Source of the DNA: Squalus acanthias
Taxonomy: Eukaryota
NCBI GenBank assembly: GCA_030390025.1
Contig: CM059431.1
Span: 124,932,001-124,996,000, forward strand
DNA length: 64,000 nucleotides
Direction of reading: 5' to 3'
Below are positions 11,582 through 64,000 of this stretch, in pieces. The position numbers were made by a program, and so were the translations under genes. Every line of letters starts with the position of its first letter. Within the stretch, counting starts at the first letter, position 1. The notes under the pieces were generated by a model. The model had not been told where the DNA came from. It was given only the letters and a program-made list of their open reading frames with translations, and made no database searches.

Positions 11582-12426
11582 GGGCAGAATTTCCATTGAG
11601 CCGTGGAGACGGGTTTGGAGGCGGGACTGGATTGAAAATAGCTGAATCGGGGGTCCCAACCCCATCCCGCCCCCAACCCGCCTCCATGCCAGTTTCGCTG
11701 GAGACGGGTATCCGACCTGTGCTGGGACCCGCCTCCCTGAGGCGGGAAGGGGATTAGTGGCAATAAACTGCCTGTTAACAGGTAGTTAACAGGCAGTTTT
11801 TTGCCTAATCCCTATTTTTATGCCTGAAATGTGGGCTCTCCGACAGGTCCGAACCACGCTGTTTCAGCGAGGCAGACCGTGGGTCTGCAGGGGTTGGAGG
11901 GGTCGATATGTCCGGTGGGCAGGTGAGTGATGGGTGCATGTGTGCAGAGGTAAGTGTGTAAGGTAAGTGTAAAGTGTGGAAAAAAGGTTTTACTTACCTT
12001 AACTTCCTCCTGCAGGCGTCAGCCCTTCAGGTCTCGGGAGTCAGAAATCTCACCGGCACAGAAAGCAGAATGGCCGTTGAGCTGTCAAAAGCTGCAGCCT
12101 CTGCTTTTTGTTCTGCAGAGAGCTCTAAATCAGCCTGAGAGGAAGGAATTAACTTAGAGTACAGATTGTCAGTGTTTGACAGCTTCAAAGAGCTGTCAAA
12201 CGCTGATATTTCATCTGTCAAAAGCTCTTGACAGATGAAATGTCAATCTGTGATGTCACCTGTTGCCGGGTGGCCCTTAATTGGCCTGCTGAGCCCACTG
12301 GGCGGGCTCAACAAGGTCAATCAAGTGAAAATACAGTGGGTTGGCCACAAGTCGATGGAGGCGGGACTACAACCCAAAAAGTGGGAGTCCCGACTCCATC
12401 CCGTCCCCAGTTTCAAAATCCAGCCC
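11582..12426 (-). mobile_element. Non-autonomous Harbinger, family A copy 2, inserted in the provirus
   Basis: TIRs GGGCAGAATTT / AAAATCCAGCCC, perfect TAA TSD (11579-11581, 12427-12429) and the family hairpin TCATCTGTCAAAAGCTCTTGACAGATGA. Confidence 0.9.
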
Positions 12427-16244: not shown

Positions 16245-16366
16245 CTCTGAGGGAGAAGGCTATGGACTTGAAACGTTAACCCTGCTTTCTTCTCTCCAAA
16301 TATACTGCCTGACCCGTTGAGTGTTTCCAGCATTTTTTGTTTTTATCACAGATTTCCAGCATCTGT
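16245..16366 (+). mobile_element. Degenerate Penelope-like pLTR fragment (same family as 49900-50128)
   Basis: GACTTGAAACGTTAAC..CTTTCTTCTCTCCA..TGCCTGACCCGTTGAGTGTTTCCAGCATTTTTTG..GATTTCCAGCATCTG parallels 50047-50129. The hammerhead core is decayed. Confidence 0.7.
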
Positions 16367-38740: not shown

Positions 38741-39848
38741 AATGTAAATTCTTTTTTCCTTTGTGGAGAGAGCATTCATCAGGCCCCTTACCCCTTCCCC
38801 ACTGTGAGGACACGCTCAAGACTCTGGGGAGACCTAAGGAACAGGCAGTCAGAGATGGAGAAGTAGGAGGATTCATGGTAGTTGATGGTTAATCACCCAG
38901 TTGCAAAGTATCAGTCCTGGACATCACCAAGACCACAAACTTTGAAAAGCCCTTTACCTACAACTGGATTAAACCTCTTCAGCAACATGGTTATAGAATT
39001 ACCTAGCGCTCGATGTCAGGATGAGGGAGTCATGGAAGAAGAGGAGACTGTGGTTGTTGAACGAAGGGTCCGGTGATGCCTTCCCAGCTTGAGGAGTCAG
39101 TGAATCCTGATTTTGATAGCCCTGTATTTAAATGAAGGATGCAAGCAGAGCTTTAAACCTTTTAGGAAGCTCTGTGTTCAGCCTCCCATTAAGTGCAGCA
39201 ACTGTCAGGGCAGGTAAACAAATCCACTACTGATTTTTGGTCTGAAATAAGGGAAGGCTTTCAATCACTACAATGTAGCCATTGCAAGAAGGACTGCAGA
39301 CTATGTCCCTACAAAAGATGCTCCTGGGATAGATGTTGATTGCTGTCTGGGCTCTAACCTTAGGCAACCAAGGGGTTTCTTGTTGATTTAAGACAGAATA
39401 GAGAGTACATTTGACCATGGCTGAACTGACATCTCTCAGTGCCCTCAGTGATCTCATAGATGCAATGTCAGGAGCGAGTGGAAAGGAAGCAAGGTCCAGG
39501 GGTGAGACCTCTGTCTGCCTGGATAGCAGGAGACCCAAGAGTATAATCCTGTTCTTTCAAGGGTTATTATTACAAATTCAGGTTTGCCGTAGATACCTTT
39601 TCAGGTTCAGTGACATCAGCTGCTCCTGTAAGCAATCTGAGTGACTTATTTTTATGGGAGCTCACTCATACAGCTCTATATCTACTTCTACAATAGCATA
39701 ATCTGGGAGTGTGAAATTTGTACCCTCCTGTTACCTGAACTGGATATTCATGTCTTTCTCATGCGCACTTTTTCAATCTCTCTGCAGGCAGACTGAGCAG
39801 ACGCTTAGTGTAAGATTCTAAAAAAATGTAATAAAACCGATGCTACCA

Positions 39849-40768
39849 TGTGGAGATCGGAATTATGAAATGGTAAAGGAGGAACTCAAAATGTAGGAAG
39901 TCAGCATGTGTTCCTTTGTCTGTGAGGACACAAAATGGAGGAAGTCAGCAGGTGGTCCTTTGTTTGTGAAGACACAAAATGGAGGAAGTCAACATGTGTT
40001 CCTTTGTCTGTGAGGATACAAAATGGAGGAAGTCAGCAGGTGGTCCTTTGTCTGTGAGGACACAAAATGGAGGAAGTCAGCAGGTGGTCCTTTGCCTGTA
40101 AGGACTCAACATGGTCAGCATATGGTCCTTTGTTTGTGAGACCACATGGACAGGAAGGAGACACACTGGATGAAGAGGAAGTCCCGCCCCCACACACATC
40201 ACAGGAACATGAACGTGTCATGCAGAAGGAACTCCAATCAGGGAAGGTTGGGAGTGAAACTGATCTATCAGAGGGAGGCAGACGAAGAACTATGAGCGGG
40301 GCCAGCAGAAAGGCATTATAAAGGAATGACCCAGAAGTGGGAATTTCAGAAGAAGAAGAAGTGAGAGACAAAGAGGGACAAAGGAAGCGGTTTGACTGGC
40401 CAGTCTACATTTCCAACCTACTACTTTTTCCGGACTGATCACCCAGGGGGAACTGTATGTATGGAAGTCGGACACATTGCATAGATATTGCTAAAGAGTA
40501 CTTTTGTGTACGGTTGACTGTGGGCATATGGAGTGCCGAGCATTAGCATAAATTGTGGAGATGCTTTTATGTACGTTTAGCTAAACTGTGTAGCATATTG
40601 ATTGCGAGGGTGCTTCTATGTACTGCTTGAATAGTGGTTGGGGTTTTGAATCTGTCTTAGGAACAATAAAAGGTTAAAGACAGAACCCGTGTGTCTGGTG
40701 TAATTTCTCATAAGTCTCAAGTCCGAACTCTATAACCTGTTGGACGGGGCGAGGGATAATTCCGCACA
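39849..40768 (+). mobile_element. Probable solo LTR (~920 bp)
   Basis: TG..CA ends with imperfect inverted termini (TGTG..CGGAATTAT / ATAATTCCGCACA), TATAAA at ~40316 and AATAAA at ~40665. No clear TSD. Confidence 0.6.
39888..40150 (+). repeat. 44-bp tandem array (~6 copies) in the putative U3
   Basis: Unit AAAATGGAGGAAGTCAGCAGGTGGTCCTTTGTCTGTGAGGACAC at 39888, 39932, 39976, 40020, 40064, plus a degenerate sixth copy. Confidence 0.92.
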
Positions 40769-48093: not shown

Positions 48094-49899
48094 AGGTGAA
48101 GCTCCATTCCAGGAGCACAATTTTGTAAAATTACCCCTTATAAATGAACAACTCAGAAGTCTAAGGTAAAGTCTGAAGTTATGTGTAACTCAGGATTTCA
48201 TTAACTGACAACCGTGTCCTCCGATTCAGCTTAAAGATGGGCAGATTTTCAACTTGCTACCCATGCAAAAAACTGGCATTGCAGATCGGCCACCCATTAC
48301 AGAAACAGCCCAAATTTCATTTTCATTGAGTGAATCTTCACTTTCGTTCCAGTGACAACCTTAGACTATGTGCACTTAGTTTTCCTTTTATTATAAAAAT
48401 GATTTCTAATTCCTTAGTGACTCTTCATAGTTAATTGACTTAAGGCTCAGGGCCATTCTGGTTACCCTTAGTTGAGTCCTCTAGCTTTTTTATAAATAAA
48501 GTTTGAATTAAAGGGAAAAAATGTTCAGAGCGTATTGTGTGCTGCCCACAATTTTCTGGACATTAATTTACTGACTTCCTGCTAGTTCAAGTCAGCTTGA
48601 TTTTTATTTTAGACATTATGCATGAATTTGAAGGTTGTTGGCCATTCTCATTAAATGTAGGTGCGGTGAAATTGGTCTTGGGCGATAGCACAAAATGGGC
48701 GATAATGAATCGGCAGCCTGTTTAGACCCAACCTGAACTTTTAAAGTCAGGCAGGATGTAAAACGGGTTAGCAATTCGCTATCAACCGCTTTGTGCGATT
48801 GCCCCCAGTCTCTTGAAGGATATTACAGCTGATACCCAGCTATTCAAATAATTATTTACTTTTACTTACCCCATGGTGGGTGGGGGAGGGGGTTAAGCTT
48901 CCAAGTTAATTAAAACAAATCCACAGAGAATCATGGGCAGCATGCTCGTAATTTTCCAATATGCACTGAAAGTGGGAAAAGTTCTTCAATAGCAGTGCAA
49001 ACATGGAAAATGACCGCCTGCATGTTCAATGAGTTAAAACAGGCCCTGATCCACTGAATGAGAGATAGATAGATATTCATAACCTTTGTCTTATTAAAGA
49101 GGTTAAGGTCATTGATCAGGCTTTTTGTTTTCCAATATTCTATGCCTACTAATCTGGCTGTGTGACCTTGATCGCAACCAGGTAAAATGAATGGAGGTAT
49201 AAATTGTGAATGACCTATAATGTACCCAAATTGCAATGGATCAAGGAAGGATTAGAACTCATCAAACACACATTCACAGAAAAAAACCTTTGTATATTTC
49301 ACTACAGTATTAACAAAGACATGATGCACAAATCAGATCTGAGGTCTCTAGTGGCATCTCTTTAGAAACTAGGATGCCTTCTGCATTACATTAATAATCA
49401 GGAACATATCTTTCCACCACTGATCAAATAAATACTGAATATAAATAAAGAACAAGGAAAGAATTCTCTGATCCTCCTTCCATAACTATTTTGCGTTCCA
49501 TGAAGACCATATGATTTGTGTATTATAACTTTTATGGAGTTGGTAAAATTGGTTTCAGACTTAGCTACCAAGAAACATTTGGGTCATTCTAGCACACCCA
49601 GGAAATAATTATTCTAAGACCTTTGTTTTGTTACTTTCAAAACATGCTACCAAGGGTTTATTCAATCTGTTTACGATATTCCTATAGTACTTATAGGGGT
49701 TGATACAATGTTTTGTTCCTGTAGTGCTGATGTACATCAGATGCCAACTCCCATCAGCCTGCTTAGTGAACCATTCAGCTGGCATGGCCATAATTCACTC
49801 CAAAGTATCTGTGCTGCTTAAAGTCAGAAGCATCTCTCATGCTAAGCTTATTGTGGCCTCAGTTTTGATGTAATTTTGAGGGATCCTCATCATAATGCA

Positions 49900-50128
49900 A
49901 TAGCAAAATACTGCGGATGCTGGAAATCCGAAATAACAACAGAAAACGCTGGAAAAACTCAGCAGGCCAGGCAGCATCCGTGGAGAGAGAAAGAGAGTTA
50001 ACGTTTCAGGTCGATGACATTTCATCAGTTCTGATGAAAGGTCATCGACCTGAAACGTTAACTCTCTTTCTCTCTCCACGGATGCTGCCTGGCCTGCTGA
50101 GTTTTTCCAGCGTTTTCTGTTGTTATTT
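49900..50128. mobile_element. Penelope-like element derivative: inverted pLTR palindrome
   Basis: 99-bp arms 49930-50028 and 50031-50129 (1 mismatch, 2-nt loop). 14-bp TSD CTCATCATAATGCA at 49886-49899 and 50129-50142. Confidence 0.88.
50027..50063 (+). ncRNA. Minimal type I hammerhead ribozyme motif (a mirror copy lies on the - strand, 49996-50032)
   Basis: Stem I AGTT/AACT, core CTGATGA (50031-37), stem II AGGTC-atc-GACCT, GAAA (50052-55), palindromic stem III ACGT, GUU cleavage triplet ending at 50059. Confidence 0.8.
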
Positions 50129-50360
50129 CTCATCATAATGCAGCTGGAGTGCCTCAGCAGTGCTCCAGAAACATAGACCGGAATTTTAACATCAAAGGGT
50201 GAGTGGTTTTGGGAGCAGGTGGGTGGTTAAAAACGCATCAAGAAGCCAGCTTCAACAAGCCGGCTTCTGCATGTAACTCGAGTGCATGCGGCTGCGAGCG
50301 AGAAACCCCCTCGAGTTAGCGATTAAGAGCCTTTTTTACCGGGGTTTCAACTTTTACTGT

Positions 50361-51195
50361 GGGGGGGGATTTTCCCAGCCCTGAGGAGGCAGGTTTGGAG
50401 GCGGGACTGCCGGGAAAATGGCAGAAACTGGGAGCGGGTACCGACCCCGTTCCCAACCCGCCTCTGTGCCATCTCCCCGGGAGGCGGTTCCCCGAGTCGA
50501 GCAGGGATCCGTCTCCTCGAGGCGGGAAGGGGATTACAGCCAATTAACTGCCTGTTAACAGGCAGTTTTGAGGCTTATCCCCATTTTGCCCCTGCATGTG
50601 TGGGCTCCCCGACGGCTGCGAACCTCGCCAGGGTCAGCAAGGCGAGCAGTGGGTCTGCGGGGGTGAGAGGGATCGAAAAGTGCGCTGTGGAGGTGAGTGA
50701 TGGGTGCAAGTGTGGAGAAGTAAGTATGAGAGGTGAGTGTAAAGTGTTGGAAAAAGTTTCCTTACCTTTGCTTCTTTCTGCAGGCTTCAACCCTTGGGGA
50801 TCCGGATGTGCCTCATCTCACCGGCAGAGATGACAGAATGGCTGCTGCATTCTCAGATGCAGCAGCCATCTGATTTCTGCTGAGGAAAGAGGTTTTGGTG
50901 AGTCTTTGTGCAAGGACTCAACATAGAACAGAGATTGTCAGTGTATGACAGCTTCTCTAAGCTGTCAAACGCTGAAAATTTATCTGTCAAAAATTTTTGA
51001 CAGATGAAACGTCATACGCTGACGTCCTCTGTCACCGGCTTTCCCTTAATTGGCCGGCTAAACCCGCAGGGCAGGCTTAACAAGGTCACTCGAGGGAAAA
51101 GAGTGTGGGTTGGCCGGACGTCGTTGGGGGTGGGACTAAAACCTGACAACCAGCAGTCCCGCCCCCAATGTGCCCCCTTTGATAAAATCCAGCAC
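50361..51195 (-). mobile_element. Non-autonomous Harbinger, family A copy 3
   Basis: GGGGGGGGATTTT / AAAATCCAGCAC ends, TGT flanks, family hairpin ATCTGTCAAAAATTTTTGACAGAT. Confidence 0.85.
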
Positions 51196-51538: not shown

Positions 51539-54193
51539 ATTGGTGCTGCTTATGCTGTTTCACCTTGGATCTCAGATGAGGAACAAGATGAACACCAGCA
51601 GCAACACCAGCAGGAGCAGCAGGAGCATTCTCCGACTGACCTGCTGCTCCACAGGAGAAAGAGGATGAGCATAAGGTTGCAGTTTGCAGGAGGCGATACC
51701 CCCAACACAGGGTATACAGGCAGAGGATCAGCTTCCTGGACATGACTGAACACCAGTGCCTCAGGGGACTCAGGCTATCATGTCAGGTCACGGTAGACAT
51801 TTGTGGCTTGCTGGAAGAAGACCTGTTGCCAAATGGACCTGGAGGACTCGCGTTACCAGTGGTTGTCAAAGTGACTACCAATCTCAACTTCTTCCCTCAG
51901 GCTTTATCCAGGGATCTGCAGGAGATATTTGCAGGATTTTGCAGTCAGCCGCCCACAAATGCATCACCCAGGTGACCAATGCCATGTTTGCCGGGGCAGG
52001 CAGTTATGTGCACTTTGGCACTGGTGAAGCCAGTCAGAATGAGAGGGCGCTCGGCTTTGCGGATCTGGCTGGCTTCCCACAGGTGCAGGGTGTCATCGAC
52101 TGCACACATGTGGCCATCAAGGCTCCCCCAGATCACCCAGGCGTGTCGGGAACCATAAGGGCTTCCACTCCATCAATATGCAGTTCATCTGCAACCACAA
52201 AAAGATCATCATGCAGATGTGTGCCAGATTCCCAGGGAGCTGTCATGATTCATTCATCCTGCGCCAGTCCACATTCACTCAGCTCTTCGCACCTCCATCC
52301 AGGCTCACCGGCTGGCTGCTTGGAAACAAGGGGTATCCACTGAAGATGTGGCTGATGACACCCTTGAGGAGGCCAAGCAATGAGGCCGAAGAGGGCTACA
52401 ATCAAAGCCAACTGATGATGAGATGTGTTGTAAGGGTTTGTGCCTGTGTCTCAGACGGTGCTGGTGCGAGGTTAGGCCTTCATTGCCTAATACTATTGCT
52501 TGCTCTGGTCTCCGGCCAGCCTTTTTGCAATAAGCACCTGTGAGTGGTTCGACCCACTCACCCTTACAGTTCTAACACTGGACTTAGGTGCAGGAGCAGT
52601 AATGCAGCGAAAACTCAAATAGACCCGGTTGAATAGTACGAAATGGAAATCTTTATTGCATAGCGTCCAAAATCATGAAGTACATGTCATAGGCGCAAAT
52701 TAACGAGAGTACAAGTATACATACATTCATAAAGCTTGGTCTATGGAAATGAAGAACGCATGGCACATCGTAAAAAGGGGAACACATTATACTTTATCCT
52801 TAATAAAACCACCCTCCCTTATCAATACCTACACTACGTCTAGATTTGTCGGATCGGGAAACATGCTCATCACTCGTGTTAGTTCGGAGAATTTTAAAGT
52901 GAGGCACTCGGCTCGTTTCGCTGCAGCGCCTGACTGTCACGTGTTTGGAAGGGTCTCTGTACCCCACTTGTTTATCTTCGCTGCTGCAACAAGCAGGCCC
53001 GACTCCCTGTTGTCACGAAGAACTCGACAGAACTCGGACAAGGTTGTAGAACTCAAAGAAAAGTCTTCCTGTTCCCGACACCGGTTGTCGGTAGATTTCA
53101 ATGAAGAGTCTTTCTTGTATTTTCGGGCGCGGTCGGGGTTTACTGACCGTGGCGGCACGTGGATTCTTCTTCTTTTCTTGTCATTTCGTCTTGTCTTTTC
53201 GGGCCTTCGGGTCCAGACACCGTTTACCGACTCTCGGGATGGTGCACCCGGTCACTTGCCCCGTCGGGGCGGCTCGTTCCGTTTGAGCTCCACCCAACAT
53301 TCGAATAACCGTCCAGTGCGGCTAAAAGTCAAGAGTCAACAGAGTCCAGCCCTAAAGAAGAGCTTCAGCAGTCGGCAGTGAGTCGAATCAAGCGCATAAG
53401 AGGCCAGCTGGGAGAATAAGAGACCGATGGACATTTGTTCACTATAGTTATAGTGCTGTGTTCCCTTATCTCCCGCTCAAATCTTAATGTTTGTCTTTTG
53501 TGTAATATTGCCGCTCAAAACTCCCAGCATGGGGCGATTCTTCTCTTTAACGGGTTTCGGTAGCACCTGAAACTGGCCAACTACCCGTTAATGTTTTCCC
53601 CATTGTTGACCCAGCCAGGATTGTATGAACCGTCTACCTGACTTGTTTTGGGGGCCCCCGAATACTTGTTTAATCACTCGTCGATGTCTCTCTCATTGTA
53701 GAGCCGTGGGGGTATTTGTGTATTGATGTGTCTGGATGGGCCTTCGATTGCCCAGTACAATGGTCCTTACTTGTGCATGGAAAACGATTCCAGCACTTAT
53801 ATCTTTGCTATTGTTCCAAATGCAAACAGGTTGCATCCTGTCTTTATCAGTGTTTATCGAGTATGATCCAATCTTATATTGAAATGTTTATTCGAACGCC
53901 ATCTTGTCTGCCCACTGTAATTCTGGAAGCTTCTGCCACGATGCGCGGCGGCCATTTTACAGGCTTCTGTGTCCTTTATATCATGACAGCGTTTCGTTTA
54001 ATAAAACTGATCAAACGAATCTGCTTCTATCTTGTTATTTTGAATCGCGATAATTGCGAAACTTTACAGTGTAATAGAGCGAGCAATTGGGATGCTGAAG
54101 CTATGCTTCAGATGCCTGGACAAATCTGGACGAGCCCTTCATTATGCACCAGCCAGGGCCTCCAGAATAATTGTGGTATTCTACGCTCTGCAC
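51539..54193 (+). pseudogene. Harbinger DDE transposase (HARBI1-like), frameshifted and split by a solo LTR
   Basis: [40 protein letters not shown] (catalytic D to N), then MRC[LTR]VIERAIGMLKLCFRCLDKSGRALHY. Confidence 0.92.
52429..54068 (-). mobile_element. Solo LTR, 1640 bp
   Basis: TGTAA...TTACA termini and perfect GTGT TSD (52425-28, 54069-72). On the - strand: AATAAA (~52652-57), TATA-like motif (~53450), YY1-like AAAATGGCCGCC/AAGATGGCG in U3. Confidence 0.9.
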
Positions 54194-55304
54194 AGGTGGC
54201 ATTCAGAATGTGCAAGCTGTTGGTGAGAGCAAGCACACACTCGTTTGAATGCCACGTTTGATGCAACATACAGGTGGGCACCCTTTCCATGGATGAACAC
54301 ATCAAAGCCACGGCCTGCGACATCATGCCAGTCATGCTGGAGATGGACTCCTCCATTCTCTCTGCAAGTGAGCACATTGCGGCTGGAATAGCTGCCAGAG
54401 CCTCATGCATTTTCTGTTGCTCCTCCAGAATCATCCTCTTTGACAACGGCCCCCGAGGTTCAGCACATTCATCCAGCTGATCAGAGCTTGGAGCGTCCTG
54501 CACCCTCCAATGAGGACTCTACACTGCTGTCCTTGCCTGCACCATCTGTTCTTGCTCACATGTGATCTGTGGGACAACAGGTGACAACACAACTATCTGA
54601 CTTATTGGTCCCACCGACATGTGTGTATGTGCGCTGGTGCTTGCTGTGCATGTGTCCTTTTGACGGTGCACCCTCAGAGTCAGCAACTTCCTCTGAGGAG
54701 TCTTCCTCCTCTGACTGGACTGGCTGCAGGACACTTTATGGGCCTGTGGGAGAGTAAAGACATGAATTCATAGAATCATAGAATCATAGAATGGTTACAG
54801 CAGGGAAGGAGGCCATTCGGCCGTGAAGCCCGTGCCGGCTCTCTGCAAGAGCACTTCAGCTAATTCCACTCCCCTGCCCTTTCCCCACAGCCTTTCATTT
54901 TTTTTTCCTTCAGGTATTTATCGAATTCCCTTTTGAAAGCCACGATTGAATCTGCCTCCACCACCCTTTCAGGCAGTTCATTCCAGATCCTAACCACTCG
55001 CTGTGTAAAAAAGTTTTCCCTCATGTCACCTTTGGTTCTTTTGCCAATCACCATAAATCTGTGTCCTCTGGTTCTTGACCCTTCGCCAATGGGAACAGTT
55101 TCTCTCTATCTACTCTGTCCAGACCCCTTATGATTTTGACCAACTAAATCAAATCTCCTCTCAACCTTCTCAACCCCAGTTTCTCCAGTCTATCCATGTA
55201 ACTGAAGTCCCTCATCCCTGGAACCATTCCTGTAATTTTTTTCTGCACCCTCTCTAAGGCCTTCACATCCTTCCGAAAGTGCAGTGTCCAGAATTGGACA
55301 CAAT

Positions 55305-58300
55305 CGGCTCGATTTTGCCAGGCCCGAGGAGGCGGGATTGGAGGCGTCTGAGGTGGTAAAATCGCAAAAAATGGCAGACATCCTGATCCCGCCTCCATCC
55401 CGCCTCTGAGCAATTTTCCCAAATGCGTGTTTTCTGACCCCGTTTCCATCCCACCTCAAGAGGCGGGATAGGCCAGGCCCTTAACAACCAGTTAAGTGTC
55501 TCTATAATCTCATTTTGAGAGGCCTTTCTGATTTTACCACTTTTCCCACAACCTACACGTCTCCTCTGGAAGACGCCAGTGAATCCTGGCAGTCTCACAA
55601 GTGGGCTGCTTACTAACAGCTGCAGCTCCACCATTAAAAAGGAGTTTTCAGCAATCATCATTTGCAGGTGGCAAAACTTTGTTGTCTCAGGTCTGGGGGA
55701 ACTTTTGTAGAAGTTTGGAGCCTGAGACCCATTTCCAGTGTGACCTCCTGGGAAACCCCTCTCGCCTCCTTGACTGAGCGCATCCTCAACTGAGGCATAT
55801 ACCAGAAGCATCGGAACCATTTTTTTCCTTTCCTCCTGGACATCAGATTCGGACGAAGACCAGCCGTGGCAGCAGCAGAACCATGAACAACAGCACCACC
55901 AACAGCAGCAGCAACAACAGGAGCGCCAAGCTGCTGCTCACCCACCTGAAGCTGCACAGGCCAGAAGGCGCCAGCGCGCGACCACATTGCTGCCCGGGAT
56001 GCAAGGGACGCACTTATCTTGGCCAGATTTGCATAGCCTGCACAATCAAACACTTTTGCCTTACACCTTTATATCAGACCATCGACAATGGCCAAGAACC
56101 TGCGGATTCCTATCACTCTGACCATCATACTGACAATTGCAAGTCGCCCTAAGCCCTCAATGTGGAAGTTAGGCGAAATGACACATGCCACAACTTCAAC
56201 AGTTTGCCATCAGAATTTTTTATGACAATAAGCAACTGATGGCTTTTCAAAATTAAACGCATTACACCCAAGTGACTACCCTTGTGACTACTTGTGCATT
56301 ATCTTCCTCTTACGCGTGCTCCTACTTGGTGCTTCCCCTGTGGCTTCAGCAGGTGTGGAGGCTCCTTGCTCACTTTCTTGCTGCTCCTGTCTCAACACCT
56401 TTGGCAGGCGCCCTCTGGGGTTGTGAACCTGTGAGGGCTCGGCAACAGTCTGCTGCTCCTGCGGCTGTGCAGGGGTTGAGACGCCGATCTCAGTTGGGTG
56501 GGGACTCTGGTGGGGCTCTGACCGAGGGCTCTGCAGTGGCATGGTCGTGTGAGCGCTTGGAGAGGAGCCCCCACTTCCTTGTTGTCTGCCACCAACATCC
56601 CTCTCATGGGTCAACCCCACTTCAGAGCTAGCAAGTTGCTGGACAGCACCTTGCTGCACTTGAGGGGGGCCATGAGGACCCGTTTCTGCACTGGAAGTCC
56701 TACTCCAGAGGACTTACATGAAGGTCTGGTTTGTTTGCTCAATAGCTGACCATCGCTCCTCAAGAGATGTCAGTCTATTCTGAACCATTACCATGTTTTC
56801 CATACCCTGGCGACTCAGCTCCTCCATGGCCGTAACCATCCTCTCCTCTACAGAAGCCATCCTCTCCTCTACGGTAGCCAGCCTTACCATGGAGGTAGCC
56901 ATCCTTTCCAAGGAGGTTGCCATCCTTTCCGTGGTGATGCATTCATGCGCCAACGCCTCCACAAAGGCTCTGCTCATGTTAGCGATGGACTCCTCCATTC
57001 GCTCCACACTCGCAGCGACCCTGGAGACAAAACCTGCCAGAGACTCCTGCACCTGTTCCTGGAGTTCCAGCACCGCTCTCCTTCTGGATGGACCCGGAGG
57101 CAAAGGGTCGACATGCAGCGGAGCCGAGCTGGGAGCGTCCTCTCCACAGTGACGAGGACTCTCCACTGCTGTCCCTGTCTCCACCATCTGCTGATGCTCA
57201 CTTGTGAGCTGTAATACATCAGGTGACGACTCTACTCTATGTCCAGAAGGTCTCACCGAGGTGTGAGTGTCTGCGCTGGTGCAGGGTGCGCTTAATTCTG
57301 CTGACGGAGCACCCTCAGAGGTTGCAGCTTCCTCTGAGGAGTCTGGAAGCTCAGGCTCTTCCTCCTGGACAGTGGGGACGAGGGCTCTCGATGGTCCTGT
57401 GGGGGAGTAAAGGAAAGAGTTAGAGATGTGAGGTAAAGGTTGCATGCACATTGAATTGTGCAGATGATCATATGTCAATCTGTAAGAGCATCAGAATCAT
57501 TATCAGTCACTCATGCAATGTCAATGAGAGAGATGCCAAACTATTCTGTCACCAGCTTGCTGTGATGCGCCCGCATGTCCGTCCCCCATTTGGGAATCCT
57601 CCTCGATCCCGGCAATTTCCAGGGCCGCCTCCTCCGAGGTGGTGAGCTGGGCTACTGAGGGTGGCCCTCCTCCTGTCCTCACTCTTTCCCTCTTATTGTG
57701 GGCTCTCTTTTCCTGCAATGAGGGACACAAGTGGAGTTTGAGTGAGAATGAAGGAGTGAGTGTAGAGAATCCATAGCATAGATGCTTAGAAGGAGACAAA
57801 GGGCCCTCCCTGTGTGTTGTAAGTTGTTGTCATTGTGTCACAGTGATAGGGCGTGTGAGGGCTGCATGGTCGAATAGTTAAGTGAATGTGACCATAGAGA
57901 GAGAGGGAGTGGGTAAGGCTGCAGGGATGTCAGTGTCAAGTGGGATGTGGAGGAAGAGGTTGGCAAAGCTGAGTGCTGGTGATGAGAGGCGATGGGGATC
58001 AGATTGAGGGTGATGGGAAAGTCATACTCACTTTTCCTGTGCGGAGAAGGTCATGAAACCTCTTCCTGCACTGCAGCCAGGTTCTGCAGCACATAGAGAT
58101 GGCATTGACCTCCTGGGCCACTTGCAGCCACACAGCTTTAGTCTGTTGTGGTGGCTTTTTTCTCCCTGAGGAAGGGAAGAGAACCTCCTTATTAGATCTT
58201 GCTCCCTGCACCAGAGCTTGGAGGGAGGGCTCATCAAAGCGAGGTGCACACTTTTGCTTGCTGGTGGACATTGTCGATAAATGAAGTCGTTCATACAATG

Positions 58301-58550
58301 TCCAAAGCGTTTCCAGTCTCCAGAAGAATCAAGGCTGCTTGCAGGCCTTAAATCCAACAGCATTTTTGACGTCATCGGAGGCGACTTTTTGTATGAAAAG
58401 ACTCATTGGGCCAGGGGTTCCCACACGCAGGAAATCAATTGCCCAATTAGGGAAAATCCCACTTTTTCAACACATCACTTCGGAGTCGGGGTCCTGACAC
58501 GATTTCCACCTGACACGCCCCAGCTCGCCCACACTGACAAAATCAAGCCC
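55305..58550. mobile_element. Myb-only Harbinger derivative, copy 1 (3246 bp)
   Basis: TIR CGGCTCGATTTT / AAAATCAAGCCC and AAT TSD (55302-04, 58551-53). Confidence 0.92.
56288..58271 (-). pseudogene. Myb/SANT-like + coiled-coil protein, 3 exons (58271-58032, 57712-57553, 57396-56288), 502 codons with one premature TAA (56714-16)
   Basis: Canonical GT/AG sites with compatible phases (0, 1). APRFDEPSLQALV..WLQVAQEV..RTWLQCRKRFHDL; basic C-terminus RSTRKRK. Confidence 0.88.
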
Positions 58551-58620
58551 AATATTTCAGTTGAGATCGGACCAGTGTTATATAAAGGCTTATCATAACT
58601 TCCTTGCTTTTGTACTCTAT

Positions 58621-61600
58621 GGGCTCGATTTTGACAGGCCCGAGGATGCGGGATTGGAGGTGTGTGAGTTGTTAAAATCACCAAAAATGGCAGGTGGGCC
58701 CGATCCCGCCTCCGAGCAATTTTCCCAAAAGCGTGTTTTCTGACCCCCTTTCCATCCCGCCTCCAATAGGCGGGATAGGCCCTTAACAACCACTTAATTG
58801 CCTCTATAATCACATTTTGAGAGGCCTTTCCGATTTTTCCTCATTCCCCCCAAGCCTCACGCCTCCTCTGGAACACGCCAGGTAATGCTGACGGCCTCAC
58901 AAGTGGATTGCTTACGAACAGCTGCAGCTCCACCATTACAAAGGAGTTTTCACCAATGACCATTTGCAGGTGGCAGAACATTGTTGTCTCAGGTCTGGGG
59001 GAACTTTTAGCAGGCATACTCAGTGTTGTGGAAGTTTGGAGCCTGACACCCATCTCCAGTGTGACCTCCTGGGAAACCCCTCTCCCCACCTTGACTGTGC
59101 GCTTCCTCAACTGAGGCATATACCAGAAGCATGGCGACCATTTAATTCCTTTCCTCCTGGACATCAGATTCGGATGAAGACCAGCCGCAGCAGCAGCAGA
59201 ACCATGAGCAACAGCAGCACCAACAGCAGCAGCATCAACAGGAGCGCCAAACTGCTAGTCACCCACCTGAAGATGCACAGGCCAGAAGTCACCAGAGCGC
59301 GACCATATTGCTGCCCAGGATGCAAGGGACGCACTCATGTTGGTCACATTTGCTTAGCCTGAACTATCAAACACTTTTGCCTCGCACCGTCTTACCAGAG
59401 CATCGCCAATGGACAACAACCTACGGATTCCTATCACTCTGACCACCATACTGACAAATGCAAGTCGCTCTAAGCCCTCAATGTGGAAGTTCCATTTGCA
59501 AAATGACACAGGCCACAACTTCAACAGTTTGCAATCAGAATTTTTTTTATCACAACAAGCAACTGGTGGCATTTCAAAAATAAGCACAACATAACACCCA
59601 AGTGCCTACCCTTGTGACTACTTGTGCATTATCTTCCTCTTACGACTGCTCCTACGTGGTGCTTCCCCTGTGGCTTCAGCAGATGTGGAGGCCCCTTGCT
59701 CAATTTCTTGCTGCTCCTGTCTCGATACCTTTGGCGGCCGTCCTCTGGTGTTGCAAACCTGTGAGGGCTCGGCAACAGTCTGCTGCTCCTGTGGCTGTGC
59801 AGGGGATGAGACGTCCATCTCAGTTGGGTGAGGATTCTGGTGGGGCTCTGATTGAGGGCTTTGCAGTGGCATGGTCGTTTGAGTGCTTGGAGAGGAGCCC
59901 CCACTTCCTTGTTGTCTGTCACCAACATCCCTCTCATGGGTCAGCCCCACTTCAGAGCTAGTAAGTGGCTTGACAGCACCTTGCTGCACTTCAGGGGGGC
60001 CATGAGGACCCGTTACTGCACTGGAAGTCCTACTCCAGAGGACTTCCATGAAGGTCTGGTTTCTATGCTCAGTAGCTGACCATCGCTCTTCAAGAGATGC
60101 CAGTCTATTCTGAACAATGACCATGTTTTCTACACTCTGGCGACTTAGCTCCTCCATGGCCGTAGCCATCCTCTCCTCTACTGTAGACATCCTTTCCACG
60201 GTGGTTGCCATGCTTTCCGTGGTGATGCGTTCATGCGCCATTGCCTCCACAAAGGCTCTGCTCATGTTCGCGATGGACTCCACCATTCGCTCCACACTCG
60301 CAGCGACCCTGGAGACAAAACCTGCCAGAGACTCCTGCACCTGTTCCTGGAGTTCCAGCACCGCTCTCGTTCTGGATGGACCCGGAGGCACAGGGTCGAC
60401 ATGCAGCTGAACCGAGCTGGCAGAGTCCTGCGCCCTCCGACAAGGACTCTCCACTGCTGTCCCTGTCTCCACCATCTGCTGATGCTCACTTGTGAGCTGT
60501 GATACACCAGGTGCCAACACTACTCTATCTCGTGAAGGTCCCACCGAGGTGTGAGTGTCTGCGCTGGTGCTGGGTGCGCTGAATTCTGCTGTGGCTGCGC
60601 CCTCAGAGGTTGCAGCTTCCTCTGAGGAGTCTGGAAGCTCAGGCTCTTACTGGACAGTGGGGACGGGGGCTTTCAATGATCCTGTGGGGGAGTAAAGGAA
60701 CGAGTTAGAGATGTGAGGTCAAGTTTACATGAACATTGAATAGTCAATCTGTTAGAGCATCAGATTCATTATTAGTGACTCATGCAATGTCTATGAGAGA
60801 GATGGCAAACTATTCTGTCACCAGCTTGCTGCGATGAGCCCATCTGTCCGTCCCCCACTTGGGAATCCTCCTCGATCCTGACAATTTCCAGGGCTGCCTC
60901 CTCCCAGGCGGTGAGCTGGGTTACTGAGGGTGGCCCTCCTCCTGTCATGGCTCTTTCCCTCTTATTGTGGGCTCTCTTTTCCTGCAATGTGGGACACAAG
61001 TGCAGTTTGAGTGAGAATGAAGGAGTGAGTTTAGATAATCCATAGCATAGATGCTTAGAAGGATACAAAGGACCATCCCTGTGTGTTGAAAGTTGTTGTT
61101 GTCATGGTATCACAGTGATAGGGAGTGTGAGGGCTGCATGCTCGAATAGTTAAGTGAATGTGATCTTCGAGAGAGAGGGAATGGGTAAGGGTGCAGGCAT
61201 GTAAGTGTCAAGTGGCATGTGAAGGAAGAGGCTGGCAAAGCAGAGTGCTGGTGAGGAGAGGCGATGGGGATCAGATTGAGGGTGATGGGAAAGTTATACT
61301 CACTTTTCCTGTGCGGAGAAGATCATGGAACCTCTCCCTGCATTGCAGCCAGGTTCTGCGGCTCAGCAAAATGGAGTTGACCTCCTGGGCCACTTGCAAC
61401 CACTCTGCTTTTGTCTGCTGGGGTGGCTTTTTTCTCCCTGAGGAAGGGAACAGCACCTCCTTATTACATCTGGCTCCGTGCACCAGAGCTTGGAGGGAGG
61501 GCTCATCAAACCGAGGTGCACACTTTTGCTTCATCATGGACATTGTCGGGAAATCAACACCTTCATACAATTTGCAGAGCCTTTGCAGTCTCCAGAGGAA

Positions 61601-61823: not shown

Positions 61824-61842
61824 TCTGCCTCTATTTATGAAA

Positions 61843-62104
61843 TGATGCGGAGATGCCGGTGTTGGACTGGGGTGGACAAAATTGAGAGTTCGCACAACAC
61901 CAGGTTATGCAGATAGTCAGGATGATATAATTTAGTTGTCTGCAATTGTAAGGTACACATGCATTGTTCTCTATCTATATATGCTTTGTCGAGTCTGTAT
62001 TTCTTTACTACTTCACCTGAGGAAGGGGCGATCGATAGCTCCGAAAGCTTGTGATTTCAAATAAAACTGTTGGACTATAACCTGGTGTTGTGCGACCTCT
62101 CAAT
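61843..62104 (+). mobile_element. Penelope-like element fragment with an inverted 5' piece
   Basis: 13-bp TSD TCTATTTATGAAA (61830-42, 62105-17) and a 29-bp inverted repeat at 61880-61908 / 62077-62105. Confidence 0.85.
62013..62054 (+). ncRNA. Minimal type I hammerhead ribozyme motif
   Basis: Stem I TCAC/GTGA, CTGAGGA (62017-23), stem II GGGGC/GCTCC, GAAA (62043-46), palindromic stem III AGCT, CUU triplet ending at 62050. Confidence 0.75.
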
Positions 62105-64000
62105 TCTATTTATGAAACCCAGGATCCCGTATGCTTTTTTAACCACTTTCTCAACCTGCCCTGCCGCCTTCAACGATTTGTGCACATACACCACCAGGTG
62201 TCTCTGTTCATGCACCCCCTTTAGAATTGTACCCTTTAGTTTATATTGCCTCTCTTCGTTCTTCCTACCAATATGTATCACTTCACACTTTTCTGCATTA
62301 AGTTTCATCTGCCACGTGTCCGCCCATTCCACCAGCCTGTCTATGTCCTCTTGAAGTCTATCACTATCATCCTCATTGTTCACTATACTTCCAAGTTTTG
62401 TGCCATCTGCAAATTTTGAAATAGTGCTCTGTACACCCAAGTCCAAGTCATTAATTAGAACTGTCACGATGAGACTGTTTTAAGTGAACATTGTGCACAT
62501 GATCATATTTCTCTTGCTGCTGACATCAAGTCAACATGAGTGACTGTCATATGCCAGGTGACCGTGTGATATTTAATTGTGTCACCGGGTAGCTGGGCGC
62601 TCCCCGTCTCTCCATCTCCCACCGCCATTAATGCGGATACTCAGTTATCTTGAGTGCCTCCTCCTCTGCTGCAGTCAGCGTGGCTATGACTGGAGGGACA
62701 CCTCCGGTTCTCTGGCTCTCCCAGGTGTTCTGTGCTCTCTTCTCCTGCAAGGAGGGAAACAAGAGACCTTTGAGTAAGAGCCATGGAATGAGTGGAACGG
62801 ATGGATGGGCAACATCTGTAGAGGGCGATTATGAGGGAGAGGCGTGATATTGCATTAAGATGAGGGGGAGTGTCAGTGATGGATGGTCAGATGAGGATGT
62901 GAGGAAGTGCATAGACAGAGAGGGATGGGTGCACCTGCAAGGTAGGTTGGTGTGAGGAGTGATGTGCAGGAGTAGGCTTGGGAAGGCAGAGTGAGGGGGT
63001 TGGGGTGACACACACATCAGGATGTAGTTGAATGTGGCATTGTACTCACCTTCCCTGACTTCATGAGGTCATTAAATCTCTTCCTGCACTGCATCCAGGA
63101 CCTCGTCACCACACTCCTGCTGCTCACTTCTGACGCTATCTCCAGCCATGCCTTATTGGTGTCTGAGGTTGTCCTCTTCCTCCTGTCAGCAGAGAATAGG
63201 ACCTCCCTGCGGGCCTTAACTCCTTGCACCAGGACTCCCAGGGAGGCATCACTAAATCGAGGGGCAGCTTTCAGATGCTGAGACTGCATTTTTTGTTCTG
63301 CAAACAAAACAAATTTCTCTCCAAACAAACTACTCTCTCTCACCAATGTCTCTCCACCTCCACCAACCTTCAACTGTCATCTGTGCATTGCTGCTTTAAA
63401 TACCTGAGCTGAATTGGACCCATGCGTGATGTCATCATGCCTGCTCCCGTTAATTGGTTGGGAAACCCGGAAGTCAGATGCAAATGCAGTGGCTTCATTA
63501 AAAAGCCACTGACAACACGCCACTTAAACGTCTGGATTCCCCATGCGATGAAGGGCTCCCCCGCTGCCAGCACCTCAGAAAGGTAAAAATCCCAGACATA
63601 GAACCCATTTAGAGTATGTGTTTCAGGGAAGCCCGCACCAAAAAAGAGCTGTTTGCCAGCAGGCTGGCCCTCTGCTTTTAATAAGGCCATCATTCTCTCT
63701 ACTATTTTTTGTCTTTGAGCTCCAATGGACAATCAATGAAAGCAGTTACTGTGTCCCGACCCACTTATTGTAGGAAAAAAATAATAGCACTATAGAAAAT
63801 TGTTTAATTGCTGCTGTTGCCCAACAATCTTGTGCCCAAACTTTGTGGCATTGCCAGCCTGTGATGCATCAGATTTGGGCAGGTATCCTTGCCACATACT
63901 CGGTAGAGCAGGTTAAAATTTCTGGAGTTTCTGGAGGCTTTCCGGTGAGCAAGTAACCTCGGCGATTTGACCTGCTCACCCACCCGCCCAGTTTCCACCA

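Follow-up and report, generated by a model that had tools for sequence, protein, structure and literature searches.

A near-perfect palindrome in a 64-kb window as a probable recent, head-to-head insertion of a Penelope-like element end

The palindromic insert and its boundaries

We analysed a 64-kb stretch of repeat-rich animal DNA with LINE-like frames (hereafter the window), in which an earlier note had pointed out a palindrome carrying hammerhead motifs. The palindrome is probably a recent, heavily 5′-truncated insertion of an abundant Penelope-like element (PLE), composed of two head-to-head copies of its hammerhead-bearing end and made via two cDNAs. Assignment of the family to PLEs is itself suggested by structural features of the sequence: a tail on one end only, an inverted 5′-truncated copy beside a direct copy, and a minimal hammerhead. 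Since the tail on one arm is combined with an inverted copy and a target site duplication (TSD), the insert matches the layout described in the available text of PMC3846280 and PMC8557442, as the earlier note had supposed for an inverted PLE end. The palindrome is thus a further, ordinary instance of an already described PLE layout.

Sequence self-comparison confirmed the anatomy initially reported: 229 nt enclosed by identical 14-nt direct repeats, with two inverted-repeat arms of 99 nt differing by a single mismatch (A50019/G50040) and separated by a TT loop at 50029-50030 (Table 1). An exact 14-mer repeat is expected by chance with p ~1e-5, even when 50x50 offsets are allowed. The centre, said to lie exactly at the CTGATGA core, is actually 1-2 nt upstream, within the 5′ strand of stem I. 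The two sides of the insert are unequal: 30 extra nucleotides extend the left arm only and the + arm ends 30 nt sooner, so that the left arm read on the - strand runs from the core through 99 nt into the 30-nt extension. Because C50129 is shared by the right arm and the right direct repeat, and the modal 3′ end of the family falls at 49898, TSD length is given as 12-14 nt. Folded as RNA, the palindrome reaches -196.2 kcal/mol (z -26.9), and none of 200 shuffled sequences was as stable.

Table 1. Features of the palindromic insert (positions in the window)
Feature	Position	Strand	Basis or remark
Left TSD copy; its last 2 nt also match the family's modal 3′ end	49886..49899	.	Loose ends before 49898 in 4/4 runs
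PLE-type 'tail', 30 nt, on this arm only	49900..49929	-	Size as in the available text of PMC3846280 (31 bp) and PMC8557442 (30-40 bp)
Inverted arm, tail-bearing copy, with defective hammerhead core	49930..50028	-	A50019 breaks stem II
Inversion joint CAG-TT-CTG	50026..50033	.	Loop letters native to the + copy
Predicted minimal type I hammerhead	50027..50063	+	Own descriptor; features as in the available text of PMC4209133
Direct arm, tail-less copy of the element's end	50031..50129	+	Loose ends behind 50130 (X6) and before mirror position 49930 (X13)
Right TSD copy, C50129 common to the arm	50129..50142	.	Sequence comparison

A short internal repeat is also present at 49916-49958, with ~30 nt spacing, just inside each of the two 3′ ends, and recurs at 16324/16353. 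It may set two priming sites.

Searches for a coding partner gave little. A 42-residue open frame running through arm and tail had 8 candidates and no match among longer proteins, which is weak evidence either way. Exact-pattern scans, two of metagenome contigs and one of viral contigs, returned 0 matches and linked no RT/GIY-YIG gene. Literature searches listed no shark description of such insertions.

Hammerhead cores

On the + strand the conserved core, helices I and II and the UH site are all present: stem I (4/4 pairs), CUGAUGA, one extra A, stem II (5/5 pairs), GAAA and a palindromic ACGU. It fits the PLE-type minimal type I hammerhead with palindromic stem III proposed earlier, and the cut proposed at 50059 is indeed the predicted one (after U50059, GUU triplet at 50057-50059). 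The closing pair of stem II is A10.1-U11.1 and not the conserved G10.1-C11.1; in public contigs, A>G at 50039 is a common variant among copies of the family. The idea that each strand encodes a hammerhead holds for the + core and fails structurally for the - core. In the latter, stem I has 2/4 pairs, with A.A at both core-proximal positions, and stem II has 4/5 pairs with a U.C mismatch; the mismatch had been correctly noticed, whereas a merely 'weaker' stem I understates the defect. The commonest alternative letter at 50019 is C in 4/4 runs.

With a hammerhead descriptor composed after the motif had been seen, only 50031 and 62017 matched within the window, and 0 matches were obtained in 200 shuffled windows. 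The suggested check with Infernal and Rfam gave no support: covariance models found no hammerhead at gathering score across the window, nor any hammerhead match with E values up to 10 in stretches of 701 nt and 56 nt. Rfam miRNA models produced sub-threshold matches only, below gathering score and of a generic hairpin type.

The suspicion that the long hairpin outcompetes the ribozyme fold was borne out by computation. With the + core constrained to fold, the full insert reaches -147.5 against -193.1 kcal/mol; at a cost of ~46 kcal/mol, the core would be buried in the hairpin in read-through RNA. In unconstrained folds of isolated cores the hammerhead was not favoured either (dimer -9.7 versus best co-fold -19.3 kcal/mol), energies which we set aside because the model ignores the hammerhead core. 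The two cores lie 2 nt apart on opposite strands, and therefore one transcript cannot supply a tandem dimer. Since, in addition, the - core fails and the + core is costly to fold within the insert, the locus is probably inert as a ribozyme. The available text of PMC4209133 (Cervera and de la Pena 2014), on PLE minimal hammerheads, reports that a monomer did not cleave and that dimers cleaved at a low level.

The family in public contigs

Contigs from 4 of 24 public runs were compared with the window. Organism A is represented by two individuals and organism B by one; the fourth run, X13, is guessed to be RNA. The family is very abundant in two species. In each of the three DNA-like runs 22,344 to 47,188 contigs align, and summed contig depth, which does not equal copy number, amounts to millions over the insert versus 8-16 over the left flank. 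X13 contigs barely cover the flanks. We did not accept the depth at 50019-50025 as a measure of palindrome number, as ordinary copies can align to the mirror arm.

Loose ends of these contigs, taken from the best 24 of 1,387 rows, delimit the inserts. Among the rows listed, a 3′ end at 49898 occurs in 4/4 runs (229, 152, 253 and 43 contigs), and the tail-less end is represented in X6 by 106 contigs behind 50130 and in X13 by 8 contigs before 49930, its mirror position. On the other side, upstream sequence before 50026 is shared (450, 369, 552 and 59 contigs, agreement 0.48-0.57, among the rows listed), while flanks before 50027-50029 are unrelated (128-238 contigs per row, agreement 0.33-0.36, again among the rows listed). 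This pattern therefore points to two preferred 3′ ends ~30 nt apart and to a hot spot of 5′ ends at the stem I edge. The hot spot sits 30 nt upstream of the predicted cut, and inserts are copied from RNA that has not been cut.

Just before CAG at 50026-50028, the upstream sequence common to the copies closes with a pyrimidine run and so resembles a splice acceptor; the inversion joint coincides with both the 5′-end hot spot (loose ends before 50026-50029) and this AG after a pyrimidine run. By analogy, 50026-50028 may be a splice acceptor: for D. virilis, the available text of PMC4209133 places the end of an intron at the 5′ end of helix I. No donor site or spliced read for the putative intron was seen in the aligned contigs. 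Despite low overall agreement, ACG closes the loose ends before 50028 in X3, X5 and X6; these may belong to a subfamily, or else a first exon of very few nucleotides may be spliced onto 50029.

Both arms carry the same minority variants (G49993/C50066 in the mirror map), as expected from a single template. Gene conversion, offered earlier as an alternative for the near-identical arms, is unnecessary and was dropped.

An older single copy of the palindrome's family lies at 16262-16363 (+). It is 81% identical, truncated inside stem II and retains part of the tail; no TSD of at least 6 nt was found at this copy.

Status of the insertion

In X3, X5 and X6 the match of the left-flank contigs ends at 49875, beyond which 44, 44 and 102 letters remain unaligned. 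In X6, another piece, with the depth of the flank (16.1), begins where the right TSD copy starts (50129), and the piece lengths add up with 8 letters between. The site appears to be empty in organism B and probably also in both other individuals of organism A, the empty-site joint itself being absent from the joints listed. Given a seemingly empty site in three DNA runs, the insertion is probably recent, in line with the earlier suggestion. The exact filled allele was not found in the runs compared, where the best share of words was 0.69.

Inversion joints and origin of the palindrome

Joints in the contigs indicate whether the palindrome moves as such. Fourteen of the best 15 of 185 joints are 'skip' joints. 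In 11 of these 14 listed skips the direct copy begins at 50027-50047 and the inverted arm ends variously from 49922 to 50015. The best 12 of 127 rows of a separate joint table all start at 50027-50047, four of them repeating joints already counted. As the reference is mirrored, joints inside the arms have a mirror reading, and which arm is shorter stays ambiguous. The proposed search for copies with the same inversion point had a mixed outcome: 3 of the 32 listed records (X3-12, X3-13 and X5-19) cross the centre gap-free with at least 31 letters on each side, while most listed joints are asymmetric. The three records show 15 differences in 107 each, and X3-13 and X5-19 look like one locus; X6-29 was not counted, with too few letters on one side. 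Symmetric centres thus recur, as one outcome among many. One X5 contig, a single case, joins the inverted arm (49944) to 50060, one base past the predicted cut.

That variable inverted arms are joined to a partner beginning at the 5′ edge of the hammerhead argues for a palindrome made anew at each insertion, and most likely it is not itself the mobile unit. The self-standing palindromic mini-retroelement with two ribozymes imagined at the outset is not supported, with one intact core, cores on opposite strands and variable inverted arms elsewhere. A non-autonomous palindrome copied whole via a hairpin RNA would account for the gap-free centre-crossing records in X3 and X5 (~86% identity, among the records listed) and for a palindromic unit bounded by TSD. 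We regard it as very improbable: inverted arms vary among copies, hundreds of loose ends fall at 50026-50029 in the rows listed, and a 99-bp hairpin would be expected to hide sequences needed by the protein and the ribozyme.

For the formation of the palindrome we favour a two-cDNA route, proposed by analogy. According to the available text of PMC11167929, the PLE protein of Anolis acts on both target strands, cutting and extending each; two RNA start sites bound the tail, and ribozyme cleavage is unnecessary. Here, a PLE protein supplied in trans would nick both target strands 12-14 nt apart. Two cDNAs would be primed with uncleaved RNA as template: on the + strand, priming would occur at the tail end, and on the - strand at the inner site, 30 nt further in. 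Both would end at the family's 5′-end hot spot, at hammerhead stem I, and their ends would be joined via a 3-nt CAG/CTG match. Fold-back products would then form a spectrum, with the near-perfect palindrome at its symmetric end. By analogy with L1, the route can be called 'twin priming'. No paper applying twin priming to PLEs was found, as judged by title or abstract.

The mirror arm could alternatively have arisen from the same PLE by self-priming, as proposed for palindromic head-to-head PLE joints in the available text of PMC3846280: antisense RNA or cDNA would fold back at a CAG-NN-CTG mini-hairpin and be extended, with one tail trimmed at integration. The joint by itself is compatible with antisense self-priming, the - strand has the order it predicts (an antisense arm without tail, the AA loop, then a sense arm carrying the tail), and the recurrence of symmetric centres in 3 of the 32 listed records fits as well. 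Fold-back yields symmetric joints only, however, and this is inconsistent with the listed joints, most of which are asymmetric, as is the second insertion at 61830-62117. Moreover, fold-back of a tail-bearing cDNA would leave AA, not TT, on the + strand; since the TT of the loop belongs to the copy without tail, this simple form is excluded. A 3-bp stem with a 2-nt loop is also a poor primer. Taken together, we consider self-priming unlikely, if less so than a mobile palindrome. An assembly fold-back at an ordinary single stump is the least credible reading, with only a slight chance of being right. The allele was not found in the runs compared and flank contigs stop matching at 49875, as an artefact would have it, but such an artefact would not produce a one-sided 30-nt tail, an exact 14-nt duplication and an inter-arm mismatch, and the same layout is seen at 61830-62117 and in short-read contigs of other loci.

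A second fold-back unit and other features of the window

The insertion at 61830-62117 is a second fold-back unit, from an unrelated hammerhead family. Its TSD is 13 nt long. A left-hand inverted tail of 37 nt and an inverted arm of 29 nt are joined asymmetrically to a direct copy of 196 nt, with the minimal hammerhead match at 62017. Upstream of this hammerhead lies a GT-led pyrimidine-rich stretch, possibly an intron. A window-wide scan found exactly two units combining TSD, tail and inverted arm, and they hold the only two minimal hammerhead matches.

Other repeats were noted in passing. A dispersed repeat with small internal palindromes has three copies (50356-51189, 11582-12399 and 1924-2751), the first of them just upstream of transposase-like frames at 51750-52543, which may be Harbinger-type. 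Tandem units of ~3.3 kb, 68-92% alike, occupy 54387-61400, and a tandem array with a 44-nt unit lies at 39843-40158.

Significance

The single locus is of little weight, since stumps of this known class are very numerous. Collectively, fresh fold-back stumps preserve, at single-base resolution, the two priming sites, the two stops and the joint, and a census of them could separate twin priming from self-priming in PLE integration. A genome-wide look is worthwhile only for the 5′-end hot spot and the statistics of the joints. Such hairpins can also be mistaken for microRNA precursors, as the sub-threshold matches obtained here illustrate.

A broader proposal is speculative and more probably wrong than right. 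The 5′ boundary of short inserts would be fixed at stem I, also the splice acceptor, the template being a discrete ~130-nt RNA or one with a hard RT stop, and twin priming at the two tail boundaries would mass-produce near-perfect 100-bp hairpins as a SINE-like by-product of the PLE. If true, these hairpins would be sources of dsRNA across the genome, able to silence the parent element, and would give a natural read-out of the unsolved second-strand step of PLEs.

Comparison with known systems

Several known elements share parts of this organization. The comparisons below refer to the available text of each source. Non-LTR retrozymes (bioRxiv 10.64898/2026.07.22.740005; PMC7229834) are likewise short, non-coding and PLE-derived, with a type I hammerhead. 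They are head-to-tail tandem repeats with two working cores, in contrast to the single head-to-head unit with TSD and one intact core found here; a retrozyme identity was therefore rejected.

The + core resembles the minimal hammerheads of metazoan PLEs described in PMC4209133 in its short helix I, the extra base between 9 and 10.1, the palindromic 15.2-16.2 and the lack of a helix III loop. It differs from them by A10.1-U11.1 instead of G-C. Opposite-strand pairs of PLE minimal hammerheads are reported there 100-700 bp apart, whereas the cores are 2 nt apart here and the second is defective. The accessible part of that paper names no cartilaginous fish.

In PAc, the Poseidon element of Anolis carolinensis (Frangieh et al. 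2024, PMC11167929), the hammerhead also lies ~100-130 nt upstream of two tail-bounding 3′ ends, and inserts also retain an uncleaved core. The available text of that paper shows priming on both strands in vitro and does not derive inverted copies from it.

There is also a likeness to Pen2a/Pen3a of Adineta vaga, for which the available text of PMC3846280 describes an inverted pLTR, a 31-bp tail, a TSD and joint palindromes, and to the general PLE insertion scheme of PMC8557442, with its 30-40-bp tail. Common to these and to the present insert are the head-to-head inverted end, the one-sided tail of ~30 nt, the TSD and the palindrome at the joint. Unlike Pen2a/Pen3a as described there, the insert has neither an ORF nor a full pLTR, its TSD is 12-14 nt versus 8-10 nt, its arms are only 99-129 nt long, and it is palindromic as a whole.
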